Shown here piece after piece: positions 1,311 to 12,748 of a stretch of 64,000 nucleotides of DNA; positions within the stretch are counted from its first letter, which is position 1, and every line of letters begins with the position of its first letter. A program made the translations under genes and the position numbers. The notes beneath the pieces were generated by a model that was given only the letters and a program-made list of their open reading frames with translations, was not told the origin of the DNA and ran no database searches. The stretch covers positions 1 through 64,000 of the forward strand of contig OX638340.1 in assembly GCA_951812955.1 (NCBI GenBank). Direction: 5' to 3'. This DNA comes from an uncultured Gemmatimonadota bacterium (GTDB lineage Bacteria > JAAXHH01).

Positions 1311-1418
1311 CGGTCCACCCAGGTGGTCGGGTCCTCCCAGGTGGTCGGGTCCTCCCAGGTGGTCGGGTCCACCCAGGTGGTCGGGTCCACCCAGGTGGTC
1401 GGGTCCTCCCAGGTGATT
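1311..1418. repeat. 18-bp tandem repeat, about 6 units (GGGTCC[A/T]CCCAGGTGGTC), directly upstream of the first operon gene
   Basis: Seen directly: units at 1311-1328, 1329-1346, 1347-1364, 1365-1382, 1383-1400 and 1401-1418. Each unit carries an inverted repeat CCACC-N2-GGTGG and an AGGTGG (Shine-Dalgarno-like) core. The last unit supplies the AGGTGA RBS at 1411-1416 for the ATG at 1423. Confidence 0.9.
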
Positions 1419-1422
1419 GGGC

Positions 1423-1716
1423 ATGAGTGAATCAACCGGAAACATGGCGGAACAGCAGGCCCTGCTCGACCGGATCGCCGAGGCCGTGGTCGCGCGCGAA
1501 CTCACCGCGCCCGCGGTGCTCTTCCTTGAATCTATGAAACCCCTCTCGTTTCTGGGTGGTCAGTTCATGGCGTTTCTCAGTCCCTTCATTCACATGGTGG
1601 TCGATGCGTCAGAATACGACCGGATCGCCGAGGCCATCGAGCGCCGCGAGAACGTGGAATTTCTGATACAACGCATTGAGCATCATGCTTCCGGGAACGA
1701 TGACCCGGCCGACTGA
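1423..1716 (+). CDS. small hypothetical protein (97 aa), first gene of the candidate operon
   Basis: ATG at 1423 is preceded by AGGTGA. The ORF track starts at the TTG at 1417. The protein is acidic and helical-looking, with a duplicated 'DRIAEA(V/I)' motif (EYDRIAEAIERRENVEF). I could not assign a family. Confidence 0.5.
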   Translation: MSESTGNMAEQQALLDRIAEAVVARELTAPAVLFLESMKPLSFLGGQFMAFLSPFIHMVVDASEYDRIAEAIERRENVEFLIQRIEHHASGNDDPAD

Positions 1717-1835: not shown

Positions 1836-3638
1836 ATGTCCCTTCCATCGGATATTGAAGTCATTCTGGCCACGGACTGCGGCAGCACGACGACCAAGGC
1901 CATCCTGATCGAAAAACGGTCCGGCGCCTACCGTCTCCTTGTTCGCGGCGAGGCGCCGACGACCGTGGAGGCGCCCTTCGAGGATGTCACGCGGGGCGTG
2001 CTCAACGCGGTGCGCGAGGTGGAGGAGCAATCCGGCCGCGCGATCCTCGACGGGGACCGGATCGTCTCGCCGGGGGCCGGGGGCCGGGGGGTTGACCTCT
2101 ACGTCTCGACGAGCAGCGCCGGCGGCGGGCTTCAGATGATGGTGGCCGGGGTGGTCAAGAGCATGACCGCCGAGAGCGCCGAACGGGCGGCCCTCGGCGC
2201 GGGCGCCATCGTCATGGAAACACTGGCGTCCAACGACGGGCGCCTGCCCCACGAACGCATCGAACGCATCCGGCAACTTCGACCGGACATGATCCTGCTT
2301 TCGGGCGGCGTGGACGGCGGTACAAAGTCCCACGTGGTCGAGATGGCAGAACTAATCTCCGCCGCCGACCCGAGACCCCGTCTGGGAAGCGGATACGATC
2401 TGCCGGTCATATTTGCCGGAAATACAGAGGCCGGCGAGGACGTCAGGCGGATCCTGGACGACAGGACGGAACTCAGCCAGGTGGAGAACCTGCGGCCCGT
2501 GCTCGAGGCGGAGAACCTGGGCCCCGCGCGGGAACGGATCCATACACTGTTCATGGAACACGTGATGGCCCAGGCGCCCGGTTACCGGGCCCTGATGGCG
2601 TGGACCCACGTGCCCATCATGCCCACCCCCGGCGCCGTGGGCAGGATGGTGCGGGTCGTCGCCGACCGCGACGGTATCGACGTGGCGGGCGTGGACATCG
2701 GCGGCGCGACCACCGATGTGTTCTCGGTCTTCGGCGGCGCCTTCAACCGGACCGTGAGTGCCAATCTCGGCATGAGTTACAGCATTTCCAACGTGTTGAC
2801 GGAAGCGGGACTGGAGGCCATTGCGCGGTGGCTGCCGTTCGATATGACCGACGCCGATCTGAAGGACCGCCTCGGCAACAAGATGATCCGTCCCACCAGC
2901 ATCCCCCAGACCATGGAGGAACTGATCATCGAGCAGGCCGTGGCCCGCGAAGCCCTGAGGTTGGCCTTCGAGCAGCACAGGAACTTTGCCGTGACGTTGA
3001 AGGGCGTGCAACAGCTTCGAACGATATCGGACACCTTTGACCAGCAGACGGGCGGACAGACCCTGGTCGACCTGATGAACCTGGACCTGATCATCGGCAG
3101 CGGCGGCGTGCTTTCCCATGCGCCGAACCGGTCACAGGCCGCGTTGATGCTGGTGGACGCCTTTCAGCCGGTAGGCATCACGAACCTGGCGGTGGACAGC
3201 ATATTCATGATGCCCCACCTGGGGGTGCTTTCCACCGTGCATGAGACCGCGGCGCTGGAGGTTTTCGACCGAGACTGCCTCGTATATCTCGGACCCTGCG
3301 TCGCCCCGGCCGGAAGGGGTAACGCGGGTTCGCACAGCGTGACGGTGAAGGCCAGGGCCGATGGCGTGGAAACCGTGTGCGAGGCCGTCGTGGGAGAACT
3401 GGCCGCGATCCCGACAGGGGAAGCGGAGGAAGTCGTACTGGAGGTCATTCCATCCCGCGGTTTTGACGTCGGCGCCGGCAGAGGCACGCCGGTCACCCGT
3501 ACCGTCCGCAATGGCCCGCTGGGCGTGATTATCGATACGCGCGGCAGACCGCTTCAACTGCCGGCCGACGCGGCCGAAAGGGTGGAGGTCCTGAAGCGAA
3601 GTTACCGCGCACTCGAAGTCTATCCGGAGTCCAGTTGA
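1836..3638 (+). CDS. GlmL/MutL(EutA)-like actin-fold ATPase (600 aa); the 'methylaspartate mutase accessory' type, here without mutase subunits
   Basis: N-terminal 'VILATDCGSTTTKAILIE' phosphate-1 motif, a second 'GVDIGGATTDVFSV' motif and 'DLIIGSGGVLSHAP' match the actin/ASKHA fold as seen in GlmL/EutA-like proteins. It is much longer than the roughly 460-aa GlmL. The stop TGA at 3636-3638 overlaps the next ATG. Confidence 0.65.
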   Translation: MSLPSDIEVILATDCGSTTTKAILIEKRSGAYRLLVRGEAPTTVEAPFEDVTRGVLNAVREVEEQSGRAILDGDRIVSPGAGGRGVDLYVSTSSAGGGLQMMVAGVVKSMTAESAERAALGAGAIVMETLASNDGRLPHERIERIRQLRPDMILLSGGVDGGTKSHVVEMAELISAADPRPRLGSGYDLPVIFAGNTEAGEDVRRILDDRTELSQVENLRPVLEAENLGPARERIHTLFMEHVMAQAPGYRALMAWTHVPIMPTPGAVGRMVRVVADRDGIDVAGVDIGGATTDVFSVFGGAFNRTVSANLGMSYSISNVLTEAGLEAIARWLPFDMTDADLKDRLGNKMIRPTSIPQTMEELIIEQAVAREALRLAFEQHRNFAVTLKGVQQLRTISDTFDQQTGGQTLVDLMNLDLIIGSGGVLSHAPNRSQAALMLVDAFQPVGITNLAVDSIFMMPHLGVLSTVHETAALEVFDRDCLVYLGPCVAPAGRGNAGSHSVTVKARADGVETVCEAVVGELAAIPTGEAEEVVLEVIPSRGFDVGAGRGTPVTRTVRNGPLGVIIDTRGRPLQLPADAAERVEVLKRSYRALEVYPESS

Positions 3639-4762
3639 TGGCCCACGCCTATACATCGGGCCTGCGCGTATCGCCCCGGACCGTTGTCGCCCGGACACGG
3701 CGCCTTCCACTGAGTGGACAGGTGGTGGTGCAGGTGGATGACCGGGTACGGCCCGATACGGTGGTCGCAGAGACGTATCTGCCCGGACCGGTGCACAACG
3801 TCAACGTCGCCAATGCCCTGGCCATTGCGCCCGAGGACGTACCAGGCTGTATGCTGAAGCAACGGAACGATTCGGTGGAAAAAGGGGAGTTGATCGCCGA
3901 ATCAAAGGGGATTTTCGGGCTGTTCAAGTCCGCTGTCCGGTGCCCAGAGCGCGGAACAGTCGAAATGGTGTCGGATGTGACCGGCCAGGTGCTTATTCGG
4001 GAACCGTCGACCCCGGTACGGATCAACGCCTATCTCGATGGCAGGATAACCGAACTCCTTCCTGGAGAGGGTGTCATGGTGGAAACAGTCGGAGCCTTCA
4101 TCCAGGGCATCTTCGGCATAGGGGGCGAAGTGCACGCGCCGATAAATCAGATCGTCCAGTCGCCCGATGAGGAGGTCACCGAGGAGATGGTCGATGCGCG
4201 GTGCGCGGGACAGATCGTCTGCGGCGGATCCATGATCACCCTTGACGCGCTGCGTAAGTTGATAAGGGTCGGCGCGTCGGGTGTGGTGGTAGGGGGCATG
4301 CAGTACCACGACATCGGCGACCTCCTGGGTTACCAGATCGGCGTCGCGGTGACCGGCGGGGAAGACATCGGCCTGACCGTGGTGGTCACCGAAGGCTTCG
4401 GGCGGCTGCCCATGGCCGAGCGCACGTTCGACCTGATCGGGTCCATGGAGGGCCGGGAAGCCTCTATGAGCGGCGCCACGCAGATCCGGGCCGGTGTGAT
4501 TCGCCCCGAAATCATCATTAAGACCGACGGCTTCGAAGAACCGCAGGCACGATCGGATCCGGCGGCCCGCGGCCTGGTATCCGGGTCCCTGGTGCGCCTG
4601 ATCCGCAAGCCATGGTTTGGAGAAATCGCCACGGTGGCGTCGTTGCCGGAACAACCCGTCAGGCTTCCGACAGGCGCCCTGGCCCGGGTGCTGGAAGTTC
4701 GCAGGACGAACGGAGAGATCGTGACCGTGCCCCGAGCCAACGTGGAGATCGTGGAGTCCTGA
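3638..4762 (+). CDS. hypothetical protein (375 aa), translationally coupled partner of the actin-fold ATPase
   Basis: ATGA overlap with the upstream gene. Gly-rich central region ('GIFGIGGEVHAP', 'GGSMITLD...GASGVVVGGMQYHDIGD'). No TM segments obvious and no family recognised. Confidence 0.5.
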   Translation: MAHAYTSGLRVSPRTVVARTRRLPLSGQVVVQVDDRVRPDTVVAETYLPGPVHNVNVANALAIAPEDVPGCMLKQRNDSVEKGELIAESKGIFGLFKSAVRCPERGTVEMVSDVTGQVLIREPSTPVRINAYLDGRITELLPGEGVMVETVGAFIQGIFGIGGEVHAPINQIVQSPDEEVTEEMVDARCAGQIVCGGSMITLDALRKLIRVGASGVVVGGMQYHDIGDLLGYQIGVAVTGGEDIGLTVVVTEGFGRLPMAERTFDLIGSMEGREASMSGATQIRAGVIRPEIIIKTDGFEEPQARSDPAARGLVSGSLVRLIRKPWFGEIATVASLPEQPVRLPTGALARVLEVRRTNGEIVTVPRANVEIVES

Positions 4763-5700
4763 TGCGTCTATCCCCGTCACGCCGCAAGCCACACCCTGAT
4801 TCCTTCGCGATCGCGCTGCTGCGTGCTGTCCTCGCGTGTACGGTGTTCGTCGCCATGGCGCAGACGGATCTCCTTTTCGCACAGACTGACACCGAATCCG
4901 GCTGGTTCAACGCGGACCGGACCCAGGCCCTGGTACTCGGGATCGTCCTGACGGGCGCCATTCTGCTTTACGTTGTGCTGGCCGCCTCGGGCCGGCCCCT
5001 TTTCATTCGTAAAATCGCCGGCCTGGAAACGGTCGAGGAAGCCGTGGGCAGGGCGACGGAGATGGGCAAGCCCATCCTCTACGTCCCCGGCCTGAACGAC
5101 ATGGACGAGGTGCAGACCATCGCGTCCATGAACCTGCTGGGTCATCTCGCCACCATCATCGCGGGATACGACTCCAGGCTGCACGTACCCGTACGCAAGT
5201 CCCTCGTCATGAGCGTGGCGCGCGAGACCGTGCAGCAGTCCTACCTGTCCGCGGGGCGCCCCGACGCTTACCAGGAGGACGACATTCACTACGTGTCGGA
5301 CGCCCAATTCGCCTACGCGGCGGCCGTCGATGGCATCATCGTACGTGAACGGCCGGCCGCATGCTTCTACCTGGGCGGATTCTACGCCGAATCCCTTATC
5401 CTGGCGGAAACGGGCAACTCCATCGGGGCCATACAGATCGCGGGAACGGCCAGGCCTCCTCAACTGCCATTCTTCGTGGCGGCATGCGACTATACGCTGA
5501 TCGGCGAGGAACTTTTCGCCGCCAGCGCGTACCTGTCCAAGGAGCCGCGCATGCTCGGCAGCCTGAAGGGCCAGGACGCCGGCAAGGGCATCGCCATCGT
5601 GTTCATCCTGGCCGGCAGCGCGCTGGCCACACTGGAGTCCGTCACCGGAAACGAGACCGTCCGCGAAGTGTCGCAAATCGTCCTCTGGCTTTTCAGGTAG
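4762..5700 (+). CDS. membrane protein (312 aa): N-terminal signal/TM, a second TM, then a soluble domain and a C-terminal hydrophobic segment
   Basis: ATG at 4762 overlaps the TGA of the upstream gene (TGATG). Hydrophobic stretches 'FAIALLRAVLACTVFVAMA', 'LVLGIVLTGAILLYVVLAA' and a C-terminal 'GIAIVFILAGSALATL'. The longer ORF-track start at 4612 lies inside the upstream gene and is unlikely. Confidence 0.5.
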   Translation: MRLSPSRRKPHPDSFAIALLRAVLACTVFVAMAQTDLLFAQTDTESGWFNADRTQALVLGIVLTGAILLYVVLAASGRPLFIRKIAGLETVEEAVGRATEMGKPILYVPGLNDMDEVQTIASMNLLGHLATIIAGYDSRLHVPVRKSLVMSVARETVQQSYLSAGRPDAYQEDDIHYVSDAQFAYAAAVDGIIVRERPAACFYLGGFYAESLILAETGNSIGAIQIAGTARPPQLPFFVAACDYTLIGEELFAASAYLSKEPRMLGSLKGQDAGKGIAIVFILAGSALATLESVTGNETVREVSQIVLWLFR

Positions 5701-5705
5701 ATCCC

Positions 5706-6386
5706 ATGCGTCGTAAAATACCGCTCATCATCACATTCATCATCGGCGTTGTCCTGGTCACAGGGTATTTCGTGACAAGGGGACCGTTCAACACGCTGTA
5801 TGAGAGTTTCTCCGATTATTTCGCCATCATTACGGTCTTCGCCTTCATCCTCGGCGGCGGCAGTCTGCTAAAGATTCATTTGAAACGCGTTTCCAACCGA
5901 TCCACGGACTGGCCCTACAGTGTGGTAACCCTGGCGGGGTTCCTCGTCACCCTGGTGATCGGACTGTTCAAGGTGGGCAATCCGGATGGGATGGGCGGGG
6001 AGATCCTGGCTGCCGGTTCCTGGCTGCGCTTCCTGTTCGACGGGGTCTACAATCCGCTGTCGGCGACCATGTTCTCCCTGCTGGCCTTCTTTGTCGCCTC
6101 GGCGTCCTACCGGGCCTTCAGAGCGCGTACGAAGGAGGCCACCATCCTCCTTTCCGCCGCCATGGTCATCCTGCTGGGCAGAACCCCCGTGGGCGCCTGG
6201 CTGACGGCCTGGATGCCGGAAATCCTGGGATTTCTCGAACTGCCGAACCTGGCCAACTGGATCATGGCCTGGCCGAACACGGCCGGCCAGCGTGCGATAA
6301 TGATCGGCATCGCCCTGGGGGTCATCGCGACCTCACTGCGCATCATCCTGGGGATCGAGCGCAACTACCTGGGCAGGAGGGAGTGA
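5706..6386 (+). CDS. polytopic integral membrane protein (226 aa)
   Basis: ATG at 5706 lies 5 nt after the upstream stop. There are 5-6 hydrophobic helices ('IPLIITFIIGVVLVTGYFV', 'FAIITVFAFILGGGSLL', 'VVTLAGFLVTLVIGLF', ...). The track's longer N-terminus (from 5361) is an Arg/Gly-rich readthrough inside the previous gene. Confidence 0.5.
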   Translation: MRRKIPLIITFIIGVVLVTGYFVTRGPFNTLYESFSDYFAIITVFAFILGGGSLLKIHLKRVSNRSTDWPYSVVTLAGFLVTLVIGLFKVGNPDGMGGEILAAGSWLRFLFDGVYNPLSATMFSLLAFFVASASYRAFRARTKEATILLSAAMVILLGRTPVGAWLTAWMPEILGFLELPNLANWIMAWPNTAGQRAIMIGIALGVIATSLRIILGIERNYLGRRE

Positions 6387-6388
6387 GC

Positions 6389-7288
6389 ATGCGGATTCCC
6401 GATTCCATCCTGCATATCGACCGGCGGATCATCTTCCTGCTCATCGGGGCGGCCGTCTGCATACCCCTGATCCTGCAGCCCCGCTTCCAGGACAGTCCCA
6501 CGCCTATCGTCCAGTCGATTTTCGACACGGTGGAGCGGCTGCCGTCCGGGTCGCGCGTATTCCTTTCCTTCGATTACGGTCCGGACACGGCGCCCGAACT
6601 GGATCCCATGGCCAAGGCCCTCGTGCGGCACACGATGACCCGGGGCCACGAGGTGTCCTTCTTCACCCTGTTCCCCGAAGGGCTGGGACAGATCAAGAAG
6701 ATCACGGACAACCTGCTGCCTGTGGAGTTCCCGGAGAAAGCCTATGGCAGGGATTTCGTGAACCTGGGTTACAAGGCCGGCCTGGGTGGCGCGATTAATA
6801 CGATGGTCGTCAACTTCCGAACGCTGATCAATGCCGACGCGGAGGGCACGCCGCTCGACGATCTGCCCATGACCGCGGATGTCGACGAGATGGTGGACTA
6901 TGCCATTATCCTCAGCCTGACCGCGGGCGACCCGGGACTGAAGGAGTGGATTCAGTTCGCGGGCGATATCGCGGGGATTCCCGTCATGGGCGGGGGCACC
7001 GCCGTGGTGGCGCCGGAACTGTATCCCTACTATCCTCAGCAACTGGTCGGCCTGATGGGCGGCCTCAAGGGCGCTTCCGAGTACGAGTCCGCCCTTGTGG
7101 ACCGGTATCCGGCCTACCGTAACGCCACCATGGACGCCACCATGCGCATGGGGCCCCAGGTCGTCACCCACGTGCTGATCGTCCTGCTGATCCTGCTGGG
7201 CAATCTGGCTTACTTCTTCGGCCGATCTGGCCGACCGGGCCGGAATGACCGGACGGACCGGGCGGACCAGGCGGACCGCAGGCGTTAA
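6389..7288 (+). CDS. bitopic membrane-anchored protein (about 300 aa) with N- and C-terminal TM helices; the C-terminal tail is encoded by a 9-bp repeat
   Basis: GGAGG at 6377-6381 precedes the ATG at 6389; GTG at 6383 is an alternative that overlaps the upstream TGA. TM 'IIFLLIGAAVCIPLIL' near the N-terminus and 'VVTHVLIVLLILLGNLAYFF' near the C-terminus. Terminal 'GRSGRPGRNDRTDRADQADRRR' is low complexity. Confidence 0.5.
   Translation: MRIPDSILHIDRRIIFLLIGAAVCIPLILQPRFQDSPTPIVQSIFDTVERLPSGSRVFLSFDYGPDTAPELDPMAKALVRHTMTRGHEVSFFTLFPEGLGQIKKITDNLLPVEFPEKAYGRDFVNLGYKAGLGGAINTMVVNFRTLINADAEGTPLDDLPMTADVDEMVDYAIILSLTAGDPGLKEWIQFAGDIAGIPVMGGGTAVVAPELYPYYPQQLVGLMGGLKGASEYESALVDRYPAYRNATMDATMRMGPQVVTHVLIVLLILLGNLAYFFGRSGRPGRNDRTDRADQADRRR
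7243..7280. repeat. 9-bp tandem repeat (RGGCGGACC) x3-4 inside the 3' end of the 6389-7288 CDS
   Basis: Seen directly: ggacggacc / gggcggacc / aggcggacc (7251-7277). It belongs to the same family as the arrays at 18810-18935 and 21110-21175. Confidence 0.7.
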
Positions 7289-7299
7289 AGGAACGGCGT

Positions 7300-7974
7300 A
7301 TGGATGTTACACTGCAGCTTTGGATCGACGCGGCCCTGACGCTGATGATCCTCAGCTTCCTGTACCGTGACAATCCTTTCTACAAATTCGCCGAACATCT
7401 CTTTGTCGGCGTGTCCGCCGCGTACCTCATGGCAATCGGATTCTGGGACCACCTGGTCCCGAACCTGCTGGGCAAACTGTTCCCCTCGCTCATGTCGGGG
7501 GTCGTGCCCGGCGCCGTCGGCCGGTCGCCGGATTACTACTACATCATCCCCGCCGTCTTCGGCCTGCTGCTTCTTACCCGCCTGGTCGACCGCTGGGCCT
7601 GGCTCAGCCGGTGGGCGCTGGCGTTCATCGTCGGCGGCTCGGCGGGATTCAACCTGCCCCGCTTCCTGGATTCGGACTTCATCATTCAGGTCCAAAGCAC
7701 CATGGTTCCGCTCGTGGTGCTCGACCCGGCTGGCAATCTGCTCTGGGGCGCGAGTTTTTCCCACATTGTACTCGTTCTGGGCGTGATCTGCGGACTGGTG
7801 TACTTCTTCTTCTCCGTAGAACACAAGGGGATACTGGGACACGTGTCTCGTGCTGGGATCTGGGTGTTGATGGTGACCTTCGGCGCCGCCTTCGGATACA
7901 CGGTCATGGCGCGCATCTCCCTCCTCACCGGCAGGATGGAAGCCCTGGGCGCCTGGCTCGCCACCATGTTCTGA
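7300..7974 (+). CDS. polytopic integral membrane protein (224 aa), last gene of the candidate operon
   Basis: AGGAA RBS before the ATG at 7300. At least 5 hydrophobic helices ('AALTLMILSFLY', 'LFVGVSAAYLMAIGFW', 'YYYIIPAVFGLLLL', 'IVLVLGVICGLVYFFF', 'IWVLMVTFGAAFGYTV'). Confidence 0.5.
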   Translation: MDVTLQLWIDAALTLMILSFLYRDNPFYKFAEHLFVGVSAAYLMAIGFWDHLVPNLLGKLFPSLMSGVVPGAVGRSPDYYYIIPAVFGLLLLTRLVDRWAWLSRWALAFIVGGSAGFNLPRFLDSDFIIQVQSTMVPLVVLDPAGNLLWGASFSHIVLVLGVICGLVYFFFSVEHKGILGHVSRAGIWVLMVTFGAAFGYTVMARISLLTGRMEALGAWLATMF

Positions 7975-7992
7975 TTGGAGACCGTCGCGCGG

Positions 7993-8040
7993 CCCGGTCC
8001 GATGTCCGGGCGACCCGGTCCGATGTCCGGGCGACCCGGT
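7993..8040. repeat. 21-bp direct tandem repeat x2.3 (CCCGGTCCGATGTCCGGGCGA) just downstream of the operon
   Basis: Seen directly at 7993-8013 and 8014-8034 plus a partial third copy. It contains the CGGACCGGG core shared with the 9-bp repeat family (reverse orientation). Confidence 0.8.
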
Positions 8041-8156
8041 ACCGGCACCCATGATTTCTGTTGCGCATTGCCATGGCCCGCTGTTATTTACTGAACCGTT
8101 CATTTCGGTCCCGGCCCGTGACGTCGGGACAGGGCGTACACGCGTAATGGAGTCCC

Positions 8157-9134
8157 ATGCAAGCCATCATCCCCGTTGCGGGCAGCGGAAGCCGGTTGCG
8201 CCCGATCACGCCAGGAACCCCCAAGGCCCTGGTTCCCGTCGCGGGGAAGCCGGTGCTCGAGTACATCCTCGAACAGATTGCCGGCCTGGGCATCCGCGAG
8301 GTCATACTGGTCATCTCCCCCTCGGGGGACGCCATCCGCGGCTTTGTCGATCAACGTGATGAGCTCGAGGCCCGGTACGTCGTACAACGCGAGCCGCTCG
8401 GGATCGGTCACGCCGTGTATCAGTGCCGCGGCCTGCTGAATGACGGCCCCGTCCTGGTCGTACTGGGCGATATAATCTACCTGTCGGACTATTCCTTCCT
8501 GGGCAAAGAACCGCCGGGCCACGCTATCGGCGTAAAGCGCGTATCAGGCGATCTTACCGGGTACGGGCTGGTAGAAGTCTTGGACGGGCGGATCACCCGG
8601 CTGGTGGAGAAACCCGATCATCCCATCTCCAATACGGCGATCGCCGGGATCTACTATTTTTCCAGGTCCGGTCCGCTCATGGATGGACTGGAGAACCTTG
8701 TCAAGTCAGATCGAAGGACCCGAAACGAGTATCAGCTAACGGACGCGCTGCAGTGGATGGTGGAAAAGGGCGAGCATCTGTCTCCCTTCGACGTCGACCA
8801 CTTGTACGACTGCGGCACGCCGGACCGTCTGCTGGAGGCCAACCGGCGGCTTCTGGACCTGAACGGGGGGAACTGCAGCATACCGGGCAGCGTCATCATA
8901 CCGCCCGTCGACATCGCCTCCGGCGCCCGGGTGCACCGATCCGTCGTCGGTCCCCACGTCGCCATCTCGTCCCGGGCCTCCGTCGTGCGCACCGTCGTAC
9001 GCGACGCCACCATCGGAACCTGCGCCCGGATCGAAAACTGTGATCTCAGGCGTTCCGTCGTTACGCCGCACGCCGTGTTGGCCGACACCGTAGAACGTGC
9101 ATCGACCGGCGCGCGTTGCGCGGTTTATGTCTGA
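8157..9134 (+). CDS. sugar-phosphate nucleotidyltransferase (NTP_transferase domain plus C-terminal left-handed beta-helix)
   Basis: N-terminal 'MQAIIPVAGSGSRLRPITPGTPKALVPVAGKPVLEY' is the canonical G-x-G-x-R-L nucleotidyltransferase signature (RmlA/GlmU/ManC-like). The C-terminal hexapeptide-like region is 'SVIIPPVDIASGARVHRSVVGPHVAIS'. Sugar specificity cannot be called. Confidence 0.75.
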   Translation: MQAIIPVAGSGSRLRPITPGTPKALVPVAGKPVLEYILEQIAGLGIREVILVISPSGDAIRGFVDQRDELEARYVVQREPLGIGHAVYQCRGLLNDGPVLVVLGDIIYLSDYSFLGKEPPGHAIGVKRVSGDLTGYGLVEVLDGRITRLVEKPDHPISNTAIAGIYYFSRSGPLMDGLENLVKSDRRTRNEYQLTDALQWMVEKGEHLSPFDVDHLYDCGTPDRLLEANRRLLDLNGGNCSIPGSVIIPPVDIASGARVHRSVVGPHVAISSRASVVRTVVRDATIGTCARIENCDLRRSVVTPHAVLADTVERASTGARCAVYV

Positions 9135-9192
9135 CCATGTACCGATAACCGATCGTCCCCGATCCTCAGGCAGTTCATTAGGAGCATGACAC

Positions 9193-10335
9193 ATGACACC
9201 TGGTTACCTCTTTACTTCCGAATCCGTTACCGAAGGCCATCCCGATAAAGTCGCAGACCAGATCTCCGACGCCGTATTGGACTCCGTCATCGAGCAGGAC
9301 CCCTATTCCCGGGTGGCCTGCGAGACCTTCGTCACTACGGGCCTGGTGCTTGTCGGAGGGGAGATCACGACAGACGGCTACGTGGACGTGCAACGCGTGG
9401 CGCGCGAGACCGTCAAGTCCATCGGTTATACGGACTCGGGATTCGGGCTGGACTGGGAGTCCTGCGGCGTGGTCGTTTCCCTCGACCAGCAATCGGCCGA
9501 TATCGCCATGGGGGTGGACCGGGAGGGCGCCGGCGACCAGGGCATGATGTTCGGCTACGCGACCAACGAGACCCCTGAAATGATGCCTCTGCCCATTACC
9601 CTCGCCCACCGGCTGACCCGCAACCTCGCGTCGATCCGGAAGGACGGCGTTGCGCCTTACCTGCGTCCCGACGGAAAGTCACAGGTCACGGTGGAATACG
9701 TGGACGGCAGTCCCCGGCGGATCGACTCTGTGGTCATCGCCGCCCAGCACGACCCGGACGTCTCCGGCGAGAAGATCAGGGAGGACATCGTCAACGAGGT
9801 AATCGGTCCCGCGCTGCCGGCCGAGTTGGTTGACCCGGGCCGGATCAAGTACCACGTCAACGCGACCGGCCGTTTCGTTACGGGGGGACCGCAGGGCGAC
9901 GCCGGCCTGACAGGCCGGAAGATCATCGTGGACACGTACGGCGGCTACTGCCGCCACGGCGGCGGAGCCTATTCGGGCAAGGACCCGACCAAGGTGGACC
10001 GCTCGGCTTCCTATGCCGCGCGCTACGTCGCCAAGAACGTCGTCGCGGCGGGTCTGGCGGAGAAGTGCGAGATCCAGCTCGCCTACGTCATCGGCGTGGC
10101 CGAACCGGTTTCGGTCAATGTAGATACCTTCGGCACGGGGACCGTCGACGACCTGGAGATCACGCGCCTGATCCGCAAGCACTTCGACCTGACGCCGCAG
10201 GGCATCATTGAGCGTCTCGACCTGAGGCGGCCGATATACCGTCCCACGGCTTCCTACGGCCACTTCGGACGGAACGAGGCGGGTTTCACCTGGGAGCAAT
10301 GCGACAAGGTGGAGGAACTCAGGAACCACGCCTGA
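9193..10335 (+). CDS. metK: S-adenosylmethionine synthetase
   Basis: '[24 protein letters not shown]', '[12 protein letters not shown]', '[27 protein letters not shown]' are hallmark MetK motifs. An AGGAGC RBS lies upstream. Confidence 0.95.
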
Positions 10336-10352
10336 GCAGGAAGGGGCTTGGT

Positions 10353-10388
10353 CCGTGAACGCGTTACTGCGGGTGACCGCGTTCACGG
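10353..10388. terminator. candidate bidirectional stem-loop terminator between convergent metK and lptG
   Basis: 11-bp perfect inverted repeat CCGTGAACGCG (10353-10363) / CGCGTTCACGG (10378-10388) with a 14-nt loop. There is no U-tract, so it is only hairpin-type. Confidence 0.4.
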
Positions 10389-10401
10389 TGTCACGGGGGT
10401 C

Positions 10402-11484
10402 TCATTTCGGCGCCCTGACCAGCAGAATCAGGGCGAGTAGTCCGAAGAGCGCGTTGGCGCCCCATGCCGCCGCCATGGGCGGGAGCAATCCGGCGTGACC
10501 GAAGGCCTGGGCAAATCGGAGCAGTCCCCAGTAGACGAAACAGATCCCGATACTCAGGGCAAATCCCACCGCGACGCCGCCCCGTCTCAGATGGGAGGCC
10601 AGCGCGCCGCCCAGCAGCACGATGATCAGACCCGCGCCCGGAAATGCGATCTTCAGGTTGAGGTCTACCAGGTAGCCCTGCACGTCTCCTCCTCCCCGCC
10701 GTACGTTCTGAATCAACTGGTCGAGTTCGCCGTAACTCATCTCCTCGGGGCGTTTCTGCCCTCGCAGGAAGTCCTCCGGCGTCTCGGACCATCCGTCGGG
10801 TTCCAACTCGGCGAACGAGGTGTATTCGGACAGTCCGCCTCCAACCAGAAACTGTCGTTTAACCCCGTTGAAAAGCAACCAGCGCCCATCCATCCAGACG
10901 GCGCGTTCCGCCGTGAGGACGCTGGTGACGGAGCCGTCGCGGAACTCGGTGACGTGTATCCCCGTGCCCTCCTCGATGCGTCCGTTGAAAACGCGGATAT
11001 AGATCTGGCGCCCTCCATCTCCCCTGAAATACACATCGTACCGGATGTGTTGCCCTGCGCCGCCTTGCATGTCCACGTGTTCCGATTTGATTTCGGCACG
11101 TTTCATGCTCGTGTGGGGAACAAGCCATTCACCGGCCCAGAACAGGCATGCGCATACCACCACGCTGACGAGGAGCATCGGCCGCAGCAACCGGTACAGG
11201 CTGAGCCCCGATGCTTTCATGGCGGTCAGTTCTCCCAGCCTGGTCAGCTGGCCGAAGGTATAAAGACTGGCGAGCAGCAGACTGACAGGAATCGTGAGCA
11301 CGAAGATGTAGGGCATGTAATAGACGTAGTAGAGCGCGATATAACCCGGTGCCACGTTGCGGTCCAGGAATCGGTCCAATTGCTCGATGAGATCGACCAC
11401 GAAGAAGATGCTGACGAAGGCGACCAGGCTGACGGCGATGGCGGTAATGAACAGGCGGAGTACGTACCGGGTGATCAGGGACAT
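10402..11484 (-). CDS. lptG: LPS export ABC permease, LptG (YjgP/YjgQ family)
   Basis: 360 aa; N-terminal 'ITRYVLRLFITAIAVSLVAFVSIFFVVDLIEQLDRFL', 'AMKASGLSLYRLLRP', a periplasmic beta-jellyroll segment, then 3 C-terminal TM helices. This is the LptF/LptG architecture. It is second in the gene pair, so called lptG. Confidence 0.8.
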   Translation of the reverse strand: MSLITRYVLRLFITAIAVSLVAFVSIFFVVDLIEQLDRFLDRNVAPGYIALYYVYYMPYIFVLTIPVSLLLASLYTFGQLTRLGELTAMKASGLSLYRLLRPMLLVSVVVCACLFWAGEWLVPHTSMKRAEIKSEHVDMQGGAGQHIRYDVYFRGDGGRQIYIRVFNGRIEEGTGIHVTEFRDGSVTSVLTAERAVWMDGRWLLFNGVKRQFLVGGGLSEYTSFAELEPDGWSETPEDFLRGQKRPEEMSYGELDQLIQNVRRGGGDVQGYLVDLNLKIAFPGAGLIIVLLGGALASHLRRGGVAVGFALSIGICFVYWGLLRFAQAFGHAGLLPPMAAAWGANALFGLLALILLVRAPK

Positions 11485-11521
11485 GAAGTAGCGTTCCTCT
11501 GGTGATTTCGACGCAATGACG

Positions 11522-12748
11522 TCAGATGCGATCCCTGCCGCTGACCCAGACCAGGACGGCTCCGGGTACGCCTATGACGATGTTCGCGGCCCACATCGCC
11601 CAGACTGGATCGATCAGATCGCGGTCCGCCAGTTCTTCGCCGCCGAGCAGGCAGGCCCAGTACAGGAGGAAGAAGCAGAGGCTGACGCCGACGCTCACGC
11701 CCATGCCGCTCCGGCGGATACGCACACCCAGCGGCGCGCCGATCAGCACGAAGACGAGACACGCCGCCGAAATGGCGTACTTTTTGTGGATTTCGACGAC
11801 GTAGCTGTTCTTCTGCCGCTGCCTCAACGAGATCGTCCGCTGCGCTTTGGCCCTGGCCGCTTCGATGGAATCTGTCTTCGCCTGCGAGTGAACCGGCCCG
11901 GGTACAAGACTTGCCGCGACCTCGTCGATCTCCAGTTGCCATTCATCGATTTTCGCCTGCATCATTTCAATGTTCAATTCGCGGTCGCCCCGGGTTCCCG
12001 CCTCCGACCGCTGGACGCCGCTGGGCGCGGTGCGAATCGAAAACCGCTGCCGCTCGAAGACCTCTTTGAAATACCGCCCCGTAGACTCGTCCTGTTGAAG
12101 GAGCTCTCCGTCATAGAGCATCAGGTTGATCCTGCTGCCCGTCTCGTTGACGTGAAACTCGCCCGACCTGGCCGTCATGATGCGCGGGTAGCGCAGGTTC
12201 TCCGTTTCGTAGATGGTGATGCTTTCAATCTCATTGTTCCTCGGATTGACCCGGTCGATCAATATGCTGTATCCCGGAATGTCCTTCATGAATATGCCTG
12301 CGGTGAAAAGCAGCGTGGGACGGGCGCGGTGGATATCGTTCATGAGCGAACGGGCCCGGTAATTGGCTTCGGGCAGGATGACGTCCATAAAGTACAGGTG
12401 ACTGCCGCCAAGGAGTATTCCCAGAACCAGCACGGGTGAGACCATCTGGTAGAAACTGACGCCGCCCGCCTTGAACGCCGTGACTTCGTTATCGGCCGAA
12501 AGCCGGCCGAAAGCCATGAGACTGGCGACCAGTACGGACATGGGAATCGATACGGCGACGATCCAGGCAAGGTTGAGAAAGAAAACCTCGAGCACGGTAA
12601 GCAGTTCGAGGTTCTTGCCTATGATGAGGTCGGCAATCTGAAATATGATGTCCATCACGAGGATGAACGTGATGATCACGAATGAAAACAGAAAGGGCCC
12701 GACGTGCGCTTTAAGAACGTATCGGTAGAGGTGAACCGGGAGGGTCAT
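11522..12748 (-). CDS. lptF: LPS export ABC permease, LptF (YjgP/YjgQ family)
   Basis: 408 aa; 'LYRYVLKAHVGPFLFSFVIITFILVMD', 'AFKAGGVSFYQMVSPVL'; same architecture as the adjacent paralogue. Confidence 0.8.
   Translation of the reverse strand: MTLPVHLYRYVLKAHVGPFLFSFVIITFILVMDIIFQIADLIIGKNLELLTVLEVFFLNLAWIVAVSIPMSVLVASLMAFGRLSADNEVTAFKAGGVSFYQMVSPVLVLGILLGGSHLYFMDVILPEANYRARSLMNDIHRARPTLLFTAGIFMKDIPGYSILIDRVNPRNNEIESITIYETENLRYPRIMTARSGEFHVNETGSRINLMLYDGELLQQDESTGRYFKEVFERQRFSIRTAPSGVQRSEAGTRGDRELNIEMMQAKIDEWQLEIDEVAASLVPGPVHSQAKTDSIEAARAKAQRTISLRQRQKNSYVVEIHKKYAISAACLVFVLIGAPLGVRIRRSGMGVSVGVSLCFFLLYWACLLGGEELADRDLIDPVWAMWAANIVIGVPGAVLVWVSGRDRI

Follow-up and report, generated by a model that had tools for sequence, protein, structure and literature searches.

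The first 64,000 nucleotides of contig OX638340.1 (assembly GCA_951812955.1), from an uncultured Gemmatimonadota bacterium and hereafter called the window, carry a gene for a 374 amino acid protein, P374. This protein is very probably the dedicated partner subunit of a subfamily of MutL proteins of roughly 600 amino acids, represented here by MutL600, the product of the gene directly upstream. A functional link between P374 and the ATPase is strongly supported. Together with the small protein g99 and four inner-membrane proteins, DUF6754, TM226, p301 and TM224, the two make up one module, and our favoured reading, to which we give a probability of roughly 60%, is that P374 is a non-ATPase subunit which couples the ATPase cycle of MutL600 to a membrane complex.

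Pairing of P374 with MutL ATPases

Gene neighbourhoods were compared in 83 fetched P374 loci (10 kb stretches), 71 of which extend 2.5 kb or more upstream of P374. MutL lies directly upstream of P374 and on the same strand in 52 of these 71, usually with a gap of 12–130 nucleotides, and farther off within the locus in another three. Reciprocal look-ups from two MutL proteins, one labelled Planctomycetes, found a gene for a 375 amino acid protein directly downstream in both, in the order small protein, MutL, 375 amino acid protein, DUF6754 and three further genes. A divergent P374 subfamily of 457 amino acids is start/stop-overlapped with a 626 amino acid MutL (L087, 172–3425).

Members of this divergent subfamily (about 450 amino acids; P0170, P0227 and others) have a duplicated N-terminal barrel-sandwich-hybrid (BSH; lipoyl/biotinyl-like) domain and the motif QGVFGLGFE, and are without AHAYTPGL; at L087 the next genes are two for ABC exporters instead of DUF6754. 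In an Armatimonadetes locus (L003, 632–973), a 114 amino acid DUF6868 protein (E-value=6.9e-07) is inserted between MutL and P374.

A search of protein representatives revealed chains of roughly 1000 amino acids in which MutL is followed by P374. The dedicated search for such fusions gave 44 clusters at 51–87% identity, mostly from marine Marinimicrobia and Tara Oceans. One of them, P0312 (1005 amino acids, labelled Planctomycetota), has a low-complexity Pro/Ser/Arg-rich stretch ahead of an intact MAHAYTPGL and looks like a frameshift or read-through artefact; leaving it out, about 43 natural fusion clusters remain. The operon context of the fusions is identical to that of the unfused genes, and most retain an internal (K)AHAYTPGL past a linker of 20–35 amino acids. 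AlphaFold2 modelling of a natural fusion, based on 96 aligned sequences, gave a predicted template modelling score (pTM) of 0.74 over 995 residues. This appears to exceed the expectation for independently placed halves, which is supportive, not decisive.

MutL600, called GlmL-like in the first-pass annotation, belongs to the MutL/GlmL family (PF13941, E-value=3e-127). In NCBIfam it scores below every relevant cut-off: 235 against 475 for accessory_GlmL, 219 against 600 for Or-4 (ornithine pathway) and 173 against 204 for TIGR01319. It also has a beta-rich C-terminal extension of about 120 amino acids that lies outside those profiles (448–459 positions). As the curated cut-offs are not reached and no mutase genes lie nearby, MutL600 was not taken as a GlmL/MutL proper. 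Its ASKHA nucleotide motifs, DCGSTTTKA, VDIGGATTD and SGGVLSHAP, are intact and invariant in 69 sequences, from which we infer that it is an active ATPase. PilM is among the top structural matches of the ATPase.

Membership of PF13941 would suit a two-chain chaperone in which MutL600 and P374 reactivate a B12 enzyme encoded elsewhere, as DdrAB, GlmL and EutA do. We find this highly improbable. Besides the scores under all three GlmL-type cut-offs, neither the surroundings of the operon in the window nor the conserved module itself includes a gene for a B12-dependent mutase or dehydratase, the conserved neighbours being membrane proteins. An adenosylcobalamin client enzyme was likewise missing from the window neighbourhood and from the conserved clusters of neighbours in 87 loci. 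DdrA ranked outside the top 60 matches of the fusion model, which neither resembles it nor superposes on it. Compared with DdrA-DdrB (PDB 2d0o) and the GlmL/EutA chaperones, the swivelling domain of P374 is carried on a separate chain or fused C-terminally, not inserted, and P374 adds BSH and KOW domains as well as the membrane module.

The P374 family is very large. A protein search returned more than 8000 clusters at 90% identity, with full-length matches at 50–55% identity in WOR-3, TA06, Armatimonadetes, Zixibacteria, Eisenbacteria and others. Profile searching of 1.84 billion representatives at 50% identity yielded 3522 proteins with E≤1e-3 and 1129 with E≤1e-30, and a scan of one genome per GTDB species confirmed at least 594 loci, or species, in many phyla. 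Carriers of the module include Gemmatimonadota, most candidate phyla of the FCB group, marine Marinimicrobia, Planctomycetota and some Bacillota. P374 had earlier been described as an orphan; with relatives at about 50% identity in so many phyla, it is one only in lacking a curated family, a name and a paper. Its matches are all unnamed, 'hypothetical protein' or 'KOW domain-containing protein', the last being the label of two UniRef members. The sole Pfam match of P374 is a sub-threshold one to RnfC_N (E-value=0.0056, 17.1 bits against a cut-off of 25.6), NCBIfam gave nothing meaningful, and sequence and profile searches of PDB sequences with P374 and with its central domain gave nothing significant. 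The first-pass annotation could not place the protein in a family either. It had named as contrary evidence a confident match to an enzyme family unrelated to the ATPase, combined with a lack of conserved adjacency, and this did not arise. A literature search on P374, DUF6754, PF13941, TIGR01319, GlmL and the domain combinations found no paper describing the module, nor any devoted to P374, DUF6754, PF13941 or TIGR01319. P374 copies were found in neither plasmid nor phage collections, and the PADLOC defence-system models gave zero matches to all seven module proteins; we therefore consider the module chromosomal, and neither mobile nor part of a defence system.

The operon and its membrane genes

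The region is a tightly packed operon of seven genes:

1417..1716, plus strand: g99, a small conserved module protein, 99 amino acids here and 130–145 in many lineages
1836..3638, plus strand: MutL600, a 600 amino acid GlmL/MutL-family actin-fold (ASKHA) ATPase
3638..4762, plus strand: P374, 374 amino acids, the final three bases being the stop codon
4762..5700, plus strand: DUF6754 membrane protein (PF20539, E-value=1.6e-118)
5706..6386, plus strand: TM226, a polytopic membrane protein with about five transmembrane (TM) helices (TM scan)
6383..7288, plus strand: p301, bitopic, with TM anchors at its N- and C-terminus (TM scan)
7300..7974, plus strand: TM224, a polytopic membrane protein and the final gene of the module (TM scan)

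The open reading frame listing gives P374 as 3635..4762 on the plus strand, in which TTG at 3635 is followed by an in-frame ATG at 3638. Since the homologues all begin with MAHAYTPGL, the start was fixed at the ATG, which is preceded by a Shine-Dalgarno-like GGAG with an 8-nucleotide spacer. The product has 374 amino acids and not 375, the latter being the number of codons when the stop is counted. The MutL600 stop TGA (3636–3638) shares its A at 3638 with the ATG of P374; a shared A had been noted in the first-pass annotation in the form ATGA, whereas the junction reads TGATG. The same TGATG overlap joins P374 to DUF6754 (4760–4764), and TM226 and p301 overlap by GTGA (6383–6386). P374 had also been called Gly-rich. 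It is so mildly, with 11.2% Gly against 10.0% in the neighbouring ATPase. Its GC content at third codon positions is 76%, compared with 62% for the window, as is typical of coding sequence. The more than 8000 matching clusters and the many invariant alignment columns show that the reading frame is real and not a chance one.

MutL, P374 and all four membrane genes occur together in 27 loci, with the membrane genes colinear in 26. In 22 loci the quartet follows P374, and in five it precedes g99-MutL-P374. As the soluble trio and the membrane quartet are thus found in both orders, they behave as two linked sub-modules. Of 59 loci, 22 have DUF6754 no more than 2 kb downstream of P374, and it is present in 36 of the 83. 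Median identity to the window proteins across phyla is 64% for MutL, 56% for DUF6754, 50% for P374, 44% for TM224, 43% for g99, 42% for TM226 and 37% for p301.

A hydropathy scan indicated that MutL, P374 and g99 are soluble, with no TM helix in P374. g99, which has no match in Pfam, was detected in about 40 of the 83 loci, usually just upstream of MutL; it stands between P374 and DUF6754 in L040, L047 and L067. This shift and the DUF6868 insertion in L003 show that the small genes of the module are positionally mobile. DUF6754 begins with a signal-like N-terminus and has TM helices; its soluble domain, about 200 amino acids flanked by positive charges, is predicted to be cytoplasmic. The soluble domain of p301 (about 225 amino acids between its TM anchors) is predicted to be periplasmic. 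p301 has 1564 homologues; the 120 listed are all unnamed or 'hypothetical' and contain no Pfam domains. Against Pfam, TM226 gave no match and TM224 only a sub-threshold one to AveC_like. Beyond DUF6754 itself, the membrane proteins have no relative in Pfam, NCBIfam or PADLOC, and no relative of DUF6754 or p301 was found among PDB sequences. DUF6754 and p301 share no similarity, nor do TM226 and TM224, and paralogy within either pair was rejected.

In 21 loci an eighth gene, with no homologue in the window, lies directly upstream of g99 (among them L008, L015, L026, L084 at 8046–8525 and L085 at 8016–8444). Its product, of about 140–180 amino acids, combines a TM hairpin with a weakly matching bacterial PH domain (bPH_6, E-value=2.5e-4). 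Glycine-cleavage genes are located just upstream of the module in 15 loci (L008, L015, L024, L029, L031, L034, L035, L043, L049, L054, L059, L071, L079, L082 and L084, the last divergently oriented). All 15 have gcvPA/PB, eight gcvT and six a gcvH-like gene, and the metagenome-assembled genomes concerned are labelled Eisenbacteria, Fermentibacteria, WOR-3, Dormibacterota and Planctomycetes. This neighbourhood could reflect ancestral synteny or a functional link. No gcv genes were found in the 64-kb window.

Three intergenic tandem repeats bracket genes of the operon. The first (1308–1415) has an 18-nucleotide unit repeated 6.0 times with 95% matches, and ends 2 nucleotides ahead of the g99 start. 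The second (1718–1765; 15-nucleotide unit, 3.2 copies) lies in the gap of 120 nucleotides between g99 and MutL600, and the third (7989–8040; 21-nucleotide unit, 2.5 copies) directly past TM224. They may be regulatory or belong to a genome-wide repeat class. The genes in the flanks (425–1276 and 8157–12748) are seemingly unrelated to the module: a PhyH-family dioxygenase upstream, and a nucleotidyl transferase, metK and a convergent lptG/lptF pair downstream. The presence of this pair indicates a diderm envelope.

Domain architecture of P374

An alignment-based AlphaFold2 model of P374 had a mean predicted local distance difference test score (pLDDT) of 85.4 and a pTM of 0.70, with low confidence at residues 1–7, 284–286 and 299–311. 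The following parts were distinguished:

3638..3664, plus strand: N-terminal peptide, residues 1–9, MAHAYTSGL here, consensus MAHAYTPGL
3665..4036, plus strand: BSH (lipoyl/biotinyl-like) domain, residues about 10–133
4037..4525, plus strand: swivelling beta/beta/alpha domain, residues about 134–296, with QGIFGxGGE, GGS, VVGG, LGYxxGVAxTGxE, TEGFG and GATQIRAGVIRPE
4577..4759, plus strand: KOW/SH3-like C-terminal domain, residues about 314–374, past a variable, low-confidence linker (297–313)

Pfam matches across family members confirm the BSH and KOW domains. Conservation was measured on an alignment of 58 sequences, in which 77 columns are invariant; these cluster in MAHAYTPGL, QGIFGxGGE, LGYxxGVAxTGxE, TEGFG, GATQIRAGVIRPE, RxIRxPxFG and PRANVE. 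The motifs quoted in the first-pass annotation are all present, namely GIFGIGGEVHAP at residue 157, GGSMITLD at 196, GASGVVVGGMQYHDIGD at 212 and GVAVTGGEDIG at 235.

The N-terminal peptide is the best-conserved segment of P374 (mean majority frequency 0.96), with invariant residues Y5, T6, G8 and L9. The model of P374 alone shows it as disordered (pLDDT about 40), and its pLDDT rises to about 69 in the fusion model. We propose that it is a docking peptide.

Over the 58 members, the BSH domain is matched by RnfC_N (PF13375) in 53, by Biotin_lipoyl in 37 (weakly) and by NQRA_N (PF05896) in 26, and it can be likened to the N-termini of RnfC and NqrA. P374 has none of the Complex1_51K/NQRA Rossmann domain, the SLBB domain or the Fe-S cysteine motifs (Pfam, 58 members), and none of its four Cys residues is invariant. 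No rnf or nqr genes lie near P374, whose neighbours are MutL, DUF6754 and membrane proteins without a family. A biotin or lipoyl carrier was considered and rejected, as no invariant modifiable Lys is found at the tip of the BSH hairpin: homologues have R or A in place of K90, and R or H in place of K97. This suggests that the BSH domain is of the docking type and not of the carrier type.

The predicted fold of residues 134–296 is closest to phosphohistidine domains and RraA, with lower matches to the thermosome apical domain, PA domains, the CPS small subunit, LdcA, IlvD/EDD and a putative cyclase. These matches span what we take to be nearly all superfamilies of SCOP fold c.8, so the swivelling beta/beta/alpha fold, though not its superfamily, is a firm prediction. 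In Pfam, this domain goes unmatched in all 58 members. It holds all the Gly-rich motifs, which thus lie in a predicted swivelling domain and not in a Rossmann or P-loop fold, together with 32 invariant columns and a dense set of invariant polar residues (E164, E242, E252, E291, R284, R289, Q156, Q282, T239, T251, T281 and Y232).

The same fold occurs in the mobile domain of phosphoenolpyruvate (PEP)-utilising enzymes (Enzyme I, PPDK/PEP synthase, rifampin phosphotransferase). Perhaps, then, the ATPase phosphorylates a residue or bound ligand of P374, and the swivelling domain delivers the phosphoryl group to DUF6754 or to a small molecule. The GGS/VVGG beta-alpha-beta unit, which resembles a phosphate-binding motif, and the invariant Thr, Glu and Arg residues of the domain favour such a carrier. 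We nevertheless consider it unlikely. There is no catalytic His or TSH/G-G-x-T-S-H motif in P374, and no invariant or nearly invariant His between residues 134 and 296; the window protein has four His, all unconserved except H3 of the N-terminal peptide, which is itself replaced in some fusions. The flanking domains differ from those of the PEP-utilising enzymes, neither the PEP-utilizers model (PF00391; 0 of 58) nor the Pfam model of RraA matches any member, and non-phosphocarriers of the same fold (RraA, aconitase and GroEL apical domains) score equally well.

A stretch of 42 residues (kiivGGS...eALkkA..vGakGivvGG) forms a beta-alpha-beta unit that aligns with the terminal, phosphate-binding end of the TIM barrel of GGGP synthase. 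The resemblance is weak (whole-sequence E-value=0.0026, domain E-value=0.089), and those to NanE and KDPG aldolase are weaker still. It hints at an anion-binding geometry and would be compatible with the earlier guess of nucleotide- or cofactor-binding loops. P374 might be catalytic by itself, its Gly-rich loops binding a nucleotide or cofactor and the ATPase being a mere neighbour or regulator. Such a stand-alone enzyme or cofactor binder would suit the very dense invariant polar and Gly positions of the domain, the likeness to phosphate-binding units and the 16 loci without an adjacent MutL. It is quite improbable in our view, as searches of Pfam, NCBIfam and PDB sequences gave no significant match to an enzyme family, the fold is predicted to be none of Rossmann, P-loop or TIM barrel, and homologues do not keep the RD motif of RraA-type aldolases, while the fusions and the conserved coupling point to joint work with the ATPase.

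The C-terminal domain matches the KOW domains of Spt5, NusG and ribosomal eL27/eL14, and also PsaE and NdhS. The first of these matches, and the label given to the two UniRef members, would fit a factor associated with nucleic acids or ribosomes. This is hardly credible for P374: the NGN domain of NusG/Spt5 is absent, as is any other nucleic-acid-binding domain, and the N-terminal two thirds consist of the BSH and swivelling domains. KOW/SH3-like barrels also dock proteins, as in PsaE and NdhS, and the gene context is one of an ATPase and membrane proteins and not of transcription or translation genes.

Proposed role and relation to known systems

In the coupling role that we favour for P374, it would form one cytoplasmic unit with MutL600, the two being translationally coupled here and fused in Marinimicrobia. 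The AHAYTPGL peptide and the BSH domain would anchor P374 on the ATPase. The swivelling domain, in which almost every invariant polar or glycine residue is found, is taken to be the working element, either as a mobile latch or as an anion- or ligand-binding site. The KOW/SH3-like domain would dock on a partner, for which the cytoplasmic domain of DUF6754 is the most plausible candidate, and ATP binding and hydrolysis could then drive a conformational cycle of the membrane complex, for transport or assembly at the inner membrane. All that concerns the work done at the membrane is conjectural.

Among the closest parallels are PilM-PilN and FtsA with its peptide partners, in which an actin-fold protein holds a conserved terminal peptide of its partner on a membrane platform. 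The P374 peptide on the ATPase may be likened to PilN(1-12) on PilM, and by this analogy it would dock similarly. Unlike PilN and FtsN, to which it has no sequence relationship, P374 is a soluble protein of three domains, and its module contains neither pilus nor divisome genes; the ATPase, in contrast to PilM and FtsA, belongs to the GlmL/hydantoinase branch.

Several points weigh against a coupling subunit. No MutL was found inside the fetched 10 kb in 16 of the 71 loci, mostly of WOR-3 type, where the neighbours of P374 are variable housekeeping genes and no alternative conserved partner emerged. Adjacency to the ATPase is therefore not universal. The earlier reading of P374, from its position, as the obligate partner is otherwise largely right (adjacency in 52 of 71 loci, about 43 fusions, and a 457 amino acid subfamily that is paired as well). 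About half of the fully flanked loci have no membrane genes nearby. The dense invariant polar residues of the swivelling domain suit an active site as well as an interface. Physical contact between P374 and MutL600, like that between their individual domains, is deduced and not directly observed. Finally, we know of no transporter or assembly machine that is powered by an ASKHA ATPase, so that the mechanism would be without precedent.

Five of the WOR-3-type loci without MutL (L002, L011, L018, L030 and L060) have a gene for a TMEM260-like TPR membrane protein of 930–980 amino acids directly upstream of P374. In L002 this gene (5163–7991) is separated from P374 by about 10 nucleotides. The P374 copies of these five loci retain the invariant N-terminal peptide.

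More tentatively, and at less than even odds, the seven- to eight-gene module may represent an undescribed class of inner-membrane machine, a transporter or an envelope assembly system, that is energised by an ASKHA ATPase and has P374 as its coupling subunit. In such a machine, which we put forward with the same reserve, an actin-fold ATPase would take the place of a P-loop, ABC or rotary one, the swivelling domain would relay the nucleotide cycle, and the TM hairpin-bPH protein would be an addition in many lineages. The P374 family, its combination of peptide, BSH, swivelling and KOW domains, its pairing with an extended MutL, and the set of four membrane proteins match nothing curated or published that we found. 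The folds of the single P374 domains and the ATPase superfamily are already known, and the novelty of the mechanism rests on the absence of annotation.

If our reading is correct, a large part of the bacterial tree carries an unstudied, strongly constrained, ATP-driven and membrane-associated complex. Its conservation across phyla (about 64% identity for the ATPase and about 50–56% for P374 and DUF6754) is typical of core machinery. P374 offers an experimental handle on it: it belongs to no known family, its N-terminal peptide is diagnostic, and it has four invariant motifs and natural fusions to the ATPase. The reading would also correct a widespread naming of the ATPase, as 'glutamate mutase L' or 'methylaspartate mutase', in genomes whose copy is linked to membrane proteins and not to a B12 mutase, and it would widen the known uses of the actin fold and of the swivelling-domain fold.

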